Below, piece by piece: positions 24,001 through 27,000 of a stretch of 36,641 nt of DNA. How positions within the stretch are numbered: the first letter of the stretch is position 1; each line of letters opens with the position of its first letter. This stretch comes from Armatimonadota bacterium (GTDB lineage: Bacteria; Armatimonadota; Fimbriimonadia; Fimbriimonadales; GBS-DC): NCBI GenBank assembly GCA_037444405.1, contig JBBIML010000028.1, positions 1 to 36,641 of the forward strand, given 5' to 3'. The position numbers are program-made.

Positions 24001-27000
24001 GCTGGCGCGCTGGGTTCAGGTGCGGCAGGCGTTCGGGGGCGAGCTGCACCTGCGCGGGCGCACAGCCGAGCTGACGCTGGTGGATGTGGAGCGCGGCAGC
24101 CAGCTCACGCCCGTGCTGGAACTGGAGTTCCCCAACCACCCTGCCGGGGTCTACCGTATCGCCCGCCTCAAGCTCACCTATGACGATAATCTCACCGGGC
24201 GTACCGAGACGCTCACCGACGAGGTAGTGCTGGAGTTCGTGACCGATCCCGCTCGCGCGAATGTGCCGCAGGACCCGCGCGTGGCGAACGAGCTGCAGGT
24301 TGCCGTGACCTCCCGCGCACTGGAAAAGACCATCATGGGCATGCGCACGCAACAGCTCTCGCAGGCGCAGGCGTTGCAGGAGCTGGAGCGCACCCGCGCC
24401 CTGCTGATGCAGCAGGGACGCCTGCAGGAGGCACAGGAGATCACGCAGGCAATCCGCGCCCTCCAGGGACAGGATACAGGTAGCGCGGAAAAGACGCTGA
24501 TGGGCACCATCGTACAGCTCGAACAGGCGAAGAAGGGGTCATAAGATGGAACGCATTCCCGAATCGGAAGTGGGTCAGTGGCTGCAGCGCGTGCCGCACT
24601 GGCAGCGCGTCGGCAACGAGATCGAGCGCACCATTCGCTTCAAAAACTTTCGGGAGGCGCTCGCGTTTGTGGTGCAGGTCGGGCTGCTCGCCGAGCGCAT
24701 GGACCACCATCCTGATATCGAGATTCGCTATCGGCAGGTGACGCTCCGACTCAGCACGCACTCGGCAGGCGGGCTGACCGAGAGAGATTTCCAGCTCGCC
24801 CAGCAGATCGACGCGCTGCTGCCCGCCTGACTACGGCTCCACGAAATCGGCAATAAAGATGTTCGTCTCGCCGGGCACCTTCGCGTTGCGGTTCGACGCC
24901 CACACCAGCTTTTTGCCGTCGCGCGAGAACATCGGGAAGCCGTCGAACTGGGGCGTGTAGGTGATGCGCTCCAGCCCTGTGCCGTCGAGATTGATCAGAA
25001 AGAGGTCGAACTCGCGCCCGCGCGGGTCGTGATGGTTGGACGAGAAGATAATCTGTTTATTGCCCGGTCGCATAAAGGGCGCGAAGTTCGCTCCGCCCAG
25101 ACGGCTCACCTGCCACCTGCGTTTCCCGTCCGCGGTCATCACCCACAGCTCCAGCTTGCTGGGGCGCACGAGGCGCAACTTCAGCAACCGCTGAAACTCC
25201 TCAATCTCCTCTTTTGTGCTGGGATGATAGGCGCGATAGACAATATACTTGCCGTCCCACGAGTAGAACGCACCGCCGTTGTAGCCAATTTCATCGGTGA
25301 GGCGGGTGAACCGGCGCGTGCGCAGGTTATACTCGCACAGGTCAAGGTTGCCGTAGCGTGTGGTGGTGAACAGGATGCGGTCGCCGTCGGGATGGAACGA
25401 GCCTTCGGCGTTGTAGGCGTCGTCGTCGGTGATGGCTTCGCGCTGGCTGCCGTCGGCGTTCGCGATATAGAGCCGATAGGGGAACAGCCCCCACACATAG
25501 CCGTGCGTGCGGTCAGGCGGTGGCGGCGGCTCGTCGCCCGTCCAGTCGGTGGAGCTGTAGAGAATCTTTTTGCCGTCGGGCGACCAGAATCCGCAGGTGC
25601 AGCGCCCCTTGCCTGTGGAGACCAGTCGCACATCCGTGCCATCGATGTTCATCGTGAATATCTGGTCGGCTTTGAAGGGTGGGCGCGTGCTTTGAAAGAT
25701 GAGTTTCCTGCCGTCGAATGAGAAGTAGGCTTCGGCGTTCTCACCACCGAAGGTCAGTTGCCGAATGTTGCGCAGTCGTCGCTCACGCGGCTCGCGCAGC
25801 GCCTCTTCCTGCCTCACTGCTCGCACGCCTGCCATAGCACAAAGTATAGCCCCGTGCGCCCTCGCCAAACTGTCGCCAAACCGACCCGATTTTGACGCCC
25901 GTGCGACATGCGTGGCAGGTTTCAGCCGACGGCTGCCTGGTCGGGCAGGGAGACAATCTGGATGTTGACCAGCCCCTTTGCCAGGCGCAGGGCGGTCTCC
26001 ACCGCTTCCGTCAGGCGCGACTGGACGCCTGCTCGCACGACGAGCCGATCCACCACAATCTCGATGGTGTGCTGCTTGTAGCGGTCTAACGGCGGCGCCT
26101 CGTTCACCTCGTACAGCGTGCCGTCCACGCGCACGCGCACGAAGCCCATGCGGGCAATCTCTTCGAACACATGGCGGTATTCGCCCTTGCGTCCGCGCAC
26201 GACGGGCGCCAGCACCTGAATGCGCGTGCCTTCGGGCAGACGCATCACCGTGTCCACGATGCTGTCCACTGTCTGGCGCGTGATGGGCTTGCCACACTGC
26301 GGGCAGTGCGGGCGTCCGACGCGGGCGAACAGCAGGCGCAAATAGTCGTAAATCTCCGTTACCGTGCCCACCGTGCTGCGCGGGTTGTGGCTCGCCGATT
26401 TCTGATCGATCGACACCGCTGGCGACAGCCCCTCGATGGAATCGACATCGGGCTTGTCCATCACGCCGAGAAACTGGCGGGCATAGGACGAGAGGCTCTC
26501 CACATATCGGCGCTGACCCTCCGCATAGAGCGTGTCGAACGCCAGCGTCGACTTGCCTGAACCCGAGATGCCCGTGATGACCACCAGCTGATCGCGCGGG
26601 ATGGTCAGATGCAGGTTCTTGAGGTTGTGTTCGCGTGCGCCCCGAATCACAATCCTGTCCTGCGCCATGCGTTCACCTCACCGTTGCAGCAGGATCGCCA
26701 CCTGAATCGCGTTCACGCTGCCACCTCCTGAAACACCTGCTGGAGGATGCCGATGGCGGTGTCCACCTCGCGCTCTTCGATAATCAGCGGGGGCACGAGG
26801 CGCAGGATGCGGTCGCCCACCGGGTTGATGATGAGCCGTTTTTCGAAGGCTTTGTCCACGATAGTGCGGGCAATCGGCTCGGTCAGTTCGACGCCAATCA
26901 TCAGTCCGCGTCCGCGCACTTCGGCGATGGGTGCGCCCTGCGCCTGCAGCTCGCGCAGGCGTGCCTGCAGGTAGTTGCCCACACGGGACGCCCGCTCGCA

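Follow-up and report, generated by a model that had tools for sequence, protein, structure and literature searches.

A UvrA encoded by two unlinked genes across most of an Armatimonadota family, with a second, independent split of uvrA in a sister family

The only uvrA of the Armatimonadota genome analysed here is encoded by two intact genes at unlinked loci, and the best reading is that their products reassemble non-covalently into a working UvrA, which we infer with a probability of about 0.85. The survey's finding had described this two-gene arrangement, and it was borne out by searching the whole assembly (2.68 Mb in 40 contigs, 98.9% complete) with both parts by tblastn, which gave these as the only uvrA pieces, and by end-to-end tiling of solved chains. 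On the solved UvrA 9gxk, residues 1–239 of the N-part correspond to chain positions 21–259 and residues 13–716 of the C-part to positions 260–960, with neither gap nor overlap. Both uvrB and uvrC are intact in this genome, and uvrB scored above the cut-off in 17 of 18 genomes of the order, the remaining one being broken at contig ends. The N-part lies in the window (the whole stretch of 36,641 nucleotides that was analysed) and the C-part inside a 245-kb contig (C7) with unrelated genes on either side. The features concerned are as follows.

25922..26668, minus strand: uvrA N-part gene, an open reading frame of 248 aa with a TGA stop, assigned by similarity and Pfam
26549..26572, minus strand: Walker A of the proximal ATPase site, N-part residues 33–40
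26294..26305, minus strand: CxxC, first Cys pair of zinc module 1, N-part residues 122–125
25955..26275, minus strand: UvrB-binding (UvrA interaction) domain PF17760, N-part residues 132–238, E 6e-42, matching 3fpn and 4dfc
25925..25957, minus strand: new C-terminal tail of the N-part, residues 238–248, kept in split relatives and absent from the intact relative G023
26674..26679, minus strand: Shine-Dalgarno-like site, 5 nt ahead of the N-part ATG, recognised by eye from the sequence
26713..27957, minus strand: class-III aminotransferase gene, presumably argD-like, upstream of the N-part on the same strand
24831..25835, minus strand: PD40 (TolB-like) repeat gene downstream of the N-part, with a -10-like hexamer 7 nt ahead of its ATG
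C7:138305-140464, plus strand, outside the window: uvrA C-part gene, 719 aa (717 if the second ATG is used)

The N-part comprises the first half of ATP-binding domain I, the first half of zinc module 1, the UvrB-binding domain and a short new tail, and the place expected for the remainder of uvrA is occupied by the PD40 gene, which is unrelated to uvrA. Logan contigs spanned the N-part stop in three of four public runs (X1, X3 and X4); all came from one study, X1 being possibly the source of the assembly and X4 a variant strain. The aminotransferase gene also precedes the N-part in genera g1, g2 and g6 and is a probable source of read-through transcription into the N-part. Relatives in these three genera have a small membrane-protein gene between the aminotransferase and the N-part, of which only a short remnant seems left here, at 26669–26712. 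Elsewhere in the window are a gene for a WD40-like repeat protein of 614 aa with a dockerin-like tail (29562–31406) and an open reading frame of 1522 aa (31564–36132).

The N-part had been described as ending after the insertion domain, which was wrong: Pfam places its end after the UvrB-binding domain, and the insertion (DNA-binding) domain PF17755 was found at residues 62–174 of the C-part (E 1e-32). This domain order agrees with the boundaries of Mycobacterium tuberculosis UvrA as given in excerpts of its description (UvrB-binding domain 129–255, insertion domain 290–411, and a joining stem with zinc modules 1 and 2; PMC3167621). The cut runs through the first nucleotide-binding domain (NBD-I), leaving Walker A, the Q-loop and one CxxC on the N-part, and signature I, the proximal-site Walker B (residues 289–292) and H-loop (321–324) on the C-part, which holds both signature motifs and the whole of NBD-II. 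Neither part alone holds a complete proximal ATPase site, which UvrA needs according to excerpts of a study of proximal-site architecture that also ascribes control of UvrB loading to the Walker A carried here by the N-part (PMC6486640).

Six CxxC motifs were found in total, one on the N-part and five on the C-part, and are predicted to form three zinc modules. The C-part motif at residues 25–28 is the next after N-part residues 122–125, and we take these four cysteines to be zinc module 1, following the pairing reported for the 2R6F structure; with this pairing the cut would separate the two Cys pairs of one module. A cut inside NBD-I and zinc module 1 is stranger than the domain-edge break first named. 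The break site itself is a hairpin loop that is short in families f2 and f4 and in G023. Intact proteins of the sister family f3 accommodate inserts there as long as about 30 aa, which marks it as a permissive site.

Conservation was surveyed in 29 genomes of the family (f1, GBS-DC), within a class search of 195 genomes. Matches to the N-part were obtained in 24 and to the C-part in 27 of the 29, genomes without a match being 69–89% complete. The stop stands at the identical place, with a conserved new tail ahead of it, in 23 of the 24 genomes with an N-part match, representing five of six genera, so that the split is common to most of the family as had been stated; G023 (genus g4) alone reads through and has an intact uvrA. 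The C-parts in turn open with a conserved new head, and the extra sequence amounts to about 9–28 aa at the end of the N-part and about 12–27 aa at the start of the C-part, with variable length. The earlier claim that the parts are unlinked in relatives also held, since they lie on different contigs in 21 of 23 split genomes with both parts. The closed genome G007 encodes them on opposite strands at a distance of 1.0 Mb, and in G027 they are about 5 kb apart and convergent.

Both parts are under strong purifying selection. Median dN/dS values for four segments were 0.038, 0.108, 0.088 and 0.063 across 20 genomes, with dS near 1; this set, also used for motif counts, omits G001, G014, G023 and G028 as truncated or intact. 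Sixteen motifs were kept in 19–20 of the 20 genomes, including each half of zinc module 1 in all 20. The survey's statement that Walker A, signature and Walker B motifs are all present was upheld across the same set, as these together with the Q-loop and H-loop occurred for both sites in 20 of 20 genomes when the parts were counted together. A single origin of the split in this family is likely. In the UvrB tree seven split genomes formed one clade (99/98) with G023 outside it, and the UvrA (65/4) and RpoB (67/64) trees left the placement of G023 and G024 weakly supported, the UvrA tree being built from 52 of 71 rows after removal of near-copies, two paralogs and one long branch. The intact gene of G023 could be a re-fusion.

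Structural modelling of the N-part together with the C-part gave a complex score of 0.74 in comparison to 0.00 for the best control, a mark reached by 51 of 78 solved complexes and by 2 of 108 mismatched pairs. The runs agreed in at least 84% of contacts, with a partner pLDDT of at least 79 and more than 400 contacts. In the model, N-part strand 28–31 is sandwiched by C-part strands 318–321 and 331–335, and the new ends (N-part 232–241, C-part 11–28) as well as both CxxC segments of zinc module 1 lie in the interface. The model supports reassembly, though such a pass is to be expected from likeness to solved UvrA and may stem from it, because structures of the intact single chain have been solved. 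Folded alone with a 40-row alignment, the C-part had low confidence at residues 1–39; the N-part folded alone from a single sequence reached a pLDDT of 37, which carries no weight.

These observations can be assembled into a proposed course of events. One ancient fission of a class I uvrA would have occurred after genus g4 diverged, with the cut falling where the UvrB-binding domain ends, in a beta-hairpin loop at the surface, after which the halves would have moved apart. Each part would have its own transcription and translation, beginning for most C-parts at a leaderless-type start. In the modelled interface the NBD-I sheet would take up the Walker A strand of the N-part between two strands of the C-part, the new N-part tail and the new C-part head would meet at the cut hairpin, and zinc module 1 would serve as an inter-chain clasp with two cysteines from each chain. 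The product would be an N2C2 equivalent of the UvrA dimer, whose partners in nucleotide excision repair would be the intact UvrB and UvrC. The gene structure, its conservation, the selection, the motifs and the partner genes are observed; the interface is a modelled one, and we infer expression, assembly, zinc bridging, repair activity and the single origin.

Signals for separate expression were found ahead of the parts. The survey had reported a -10 box directly upstream of the C-part, and in this genome such a hexamer indeed stands ahead of the C-part, at 4 or 10 nt depending on which of its two ATGs is the start; across the family a -10-like hexamer lies 4–10 nt ahead of an in-frame start in 21 of 25 C-parts. 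The other four have none, which speaks against the main reading. Genome-wide, -10-like hexamers peak 6–10 nt ahead of ATGs (29–55 per position versus about 14 elsewhere), which suggests that leaderless-type starts are common in this genome; an internal fragment could therefore gain its own expression cheaply. The N-part here follows the aminotransferase gene and has the Shine-Dalgarno-like site instead, and a scan of the window region for sigma-70 two-hexamer promoters gave no match at the N-part. Four C-parts of genus g3 have an inverted repeat in which two -10-like hexamers stand back to back; ahead of it lies a conserved stretch that looks non-coding and had no Rfam match in one of the four.

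A different interpretation gives the N-part a new role as an adaptor that is partly independent and can be exchanged: attached to UvrB or Mfd, it would dock on the C-part only at times, so that assembly gates the proximal ATPase site. In favour of this, the Walker A with control over UvrB loading sits on the N-part beside the complete UvrB-binding domain, each part has a putative promoter of its own and a new conserved end, and the split has been maintained across five genera. Neither part shows relaxed or accelerated evolution, however, and a permanent complex is favoured because the modelled interface is very large and interleaves one beta-sheet; we consider the adaptor role improbable, though it is the least improbable of the alternatives. 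Covalent joining of the halves, by protein trans-splicing through a split intein or by RNA trans-splicing, is rated lower still and appears very unlikely. Unlinked halves that tile one protein are typical of split inteins and trans-spliced introns, and 'fractured genes' reportedly consist of unlinked halves with split inteins, but the added ends are short and variable in length, Pfam gave no intein family for either part, and a search of seven loci for a trans-spliced intron returned no Rfam match. In many genomes the next gene begins within a few bases of the N-part stop, and since the C-part start is of the leaderless type there is no room for intron halves.

Two further explanations seem scarcely credible. 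Programmed DNA rearrangement could re-join uvrA in some cells, as the halves are unlinked and stand in opposite orientation in G007 and G027, yet the longest word common to both junctions averaged 9.1 nt in comparison to 9.0 nt in controls over 22 genomes, no recombination site was found, and the genes flanking the parts differ between genera. The four public runs gave no loose end or joint at the N-part stop among those listed, in contigs that drop rare forms. The halves could otherwise be decaying pseudogenes or an assembly artefact, with repair lost or performed by the C-part alone. A broken repair gene is usually a pseudogene, and frameshifts were present in 3 of 80 unrelated uvrA loci; against this stand the identical break in 23 genomes including a closed one, the purifying selection on both parts and the contigs that bridge the stop, while a C-part acting alone would be without Walker A of the proximal site and without the UvrB-binding domain. 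Non-covalent reassembly of the two chains accordingly stays the preferred reading.

The claim that a sister family had split UvrA independently between the two ABC halves was confirmed, the break lying at the linker between NBD-I and NBD-II. A free-standing NBD-II half was identified in 115 of 150 f3 genomes, with 28 intact and 7 without a call, of which 70 of the 115 split and 26 of the 28 intact genomes were checked in sequence; the family is therefore not uniformly split, as the six genomes of the survey had implied. A distance of up to 1.7 Mb between f3 halves, as reported, holds for the closed genome G167, and halves fetched together are mostly 0.5–7 kb apart with other genes between. In G192 the stop and start of the halves overlap, and in G177 they are in frame with one TAG between them, this TAG belonging to a -10 hexamer. 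Intact frames had been attributed to one genus of the split family and to families f2 and f5: G023 reads through, and uvrA frames of 951–1093 codons were found in 17 of 17 f2 genomes (including the unpublished G038) and 3 of 3 f4 genomes, f5 as numbered here being one genome whose uvrA is cut by a contig end. Because f2, in which uvrA is intact, is the sister of f3 and the sites of the two cuts differ, the splits of f1 and f3 are independent.

Intact f3 genes fell within groups of split ones, and strongly supported cases are three (G105 in g28, G189 in g64 and G046 in g16), and the f3 tree of 94 rows, from which 8 near-copies or odd rows had been dropped, forces at least 5–6 changes between split and intact. 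A group in g24 has long Lys-rich linkers that resemble the tails of split N-halves, two of them with a Met just before NBD-II. These intact copies are probably re-fusions. The pattern is most simply read as one early fission with several later re-fusions, but it could also have arisen by repeated fission or by gene transfer. In the same family, G167 has a partial second NBD-II half (G167:C1:2143147-2143584) about 3 kb upstream of the complete one, G070 and G081 carry extra divergent full-length uvrA paralogs, and G059 has an extra class II-like uvrA copy of 798 codons.

Beyond the class, 116 of the 122 rows listed had frames of at least 870 codons, with 370 further matches beyond those listed. 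The six short frames were considered as a third split and rejected, as all lie at contig ends (five checked in sequence, one judged by coordinates). Intactness outside the class is a weaker result, because it is based on the open-frame column, which overstated length in five split f3 genomes (G061, G068, G078, G090 and G177). Of 80 unrelated uvrA loci, 73 were intact, 3 contiguous with frameshifts and 4 at contig edges, and none was split at either site. The survey had found no paper on a split UvrA, and a literature search, with subscription journals mostly outside its coverage, again brought up no split UvrA, nor any LexA box described for this phylum.

Class I UvrA, represented by Bacillus stearothermophilus 2R6F, M. 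tuberculosis 3ZQJ and Thermotoga maritima 3PIH, has the same domains and motifs in the same order, and the two parts tile these solved chains. Judged from sequence, the split UvrA resembles class I in make-up. Class I is one chain, however, and this UvrA is two, encoded by unlinked genes and divided within NBD-I and zinc module 1. Class II UvrA is defined by a missing UvrB-binding domain. This domain is absent from class II UvrA, UvrA2 and Ecm16, as it is from the C-part alone; unlike the C-part, class II UvrA keeps the first Walker A on the same chain, and here the missing domain is encoded separately as the N-part. Both NBDs are on one chain in known UvrA, according to excerpts of PMC7835731.

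Other split proteins offer partial parallels. The two-chain LeuRS of Aquifex and cyanobacterial RpoC1/RpoC2 are split proteins, and cyanobacterial dnaE is a split-intein gene; split-intein genes share with this uvrA the unlinked halves of one essential-type gene, but intein halves are missing here. Myles and Sancar (1991) reportedly engineered E. coli UvrA fragments of 70 kDa and 35 kDa with the cut at the NBD-I/II hinge, where f3 is split naturally; that cut is artificial and not at the f1 site. Fission through gain of an internal promoter has been proposed for split-Doa10 of Kluyveromyces (PMC3464245). Like the proposal for UvrA, split-Doa10, LeuRS and RpoC1/RpoC2 involve lineage-wide fission and non-covalent reassembly, but they are not ABC ATPases, whereas in UvrA an ATPase site and a metal site are predicted to be completed between chains. 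Excerpts of PMC8185306 describe reverse gyrase as split in two polypeptides in Nanoarchaeum equitans and Methanopyrus kandleri, the M. kandleri cut lying off a domain boundary; those splits concern another protein in single species, in contrast to a family-wide UvrA split, a second independent one and apparent re-fusions. What is surprising is the position of the cut and the occurrence of two splits in one order.

The two ATPase sites of UvrA are allosterically coupled, and the two natural splits test the need for covalent continuity within NBD-I (f1) and between the NBDs (f3). Separate halves would allow site-specific labelling and mixing directed at proximal versus distal sites and at motion of the UvrB-binding domain. 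The f1 form, if true, would give an example of an ABC nucleotide-binding domain, and of a structural zinc site, that two chains complete together, and the f3 series, with halves apart, adjacent, one stop apart or re-joined by long or short linkers, provides rare intermediates of fission and re-fusion. On the practical side, such genomes are liable to mis-annotation as having a fragmentary uvrA.

De novo motif search of 48 upstream regions yielded a 16-bp palindrome, GTAGAC-N4-GTCTAC, upstream of uvrA in f2, f3 and f4 loci. Among held-out f3 C-halves, 55 of 70 scored at least 8, in comparison to 2–3% in shuffles, and each of these 55 boxes directly adjoins the start codon and overlaps the -10 hexamer. 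A raw count allowing two mismatches was not enriched over the reversed control; it is position that speaks for the box. LexA genes were present in five of five genomes, and the third-best palindrome site of the genome studied here (sites at C15:33918, C8:99859 and C7:217248) stands 29 nt ahead of a recA-like gene, recognised as such from its sequence. The palindrome is accordingly a candidate LexA (SOS) operator for this little-studied lineage. Ahead of lexA itself, a site scoring at least 8 stood in three of five genomes.

In the split f1 family the box scored at least 8 in only 3 of 23 N-part and 4 of 25 C-part upstream regions, which counts against the main reading. G024, the earliest-branching split genome, has it ahead of both parts (14.2 and 12.9); the genome studied here, like most of the family, has it ahead of neither, and most split f1 genomes thus appear to lack a shared operator ahead of both parts. 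The notion that the -10 box supplies the fission stop was rejected as a rule, as only 10 of 44 flush boxes have a hexamer that forms an in-frame stop, and 33 of the 44 read TAT; it is one way in which a gene might gain a promoter and be split in the same step. More speculatively, and with rather low confidence, uvrA might be a fission-fusion hotspot in this order, where a short cassette, with a -10 hexamer lying within a LexA-like operator that directly adjoins an ATG, makes stop, promoter, operator and start at once: UvrA would have been cut twice, at different permissive loops, and re-joined many times. In f1 the proximal ATPase site and zinc module 1 would then be complete only once the separately regulated chains have assembled, and this assembly would act as a control point of damage sensing. 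A strong palindrome site also stands ahead of a gene of 176 aa without a Pfam match, which to us looks Rad52/DdrA-like.
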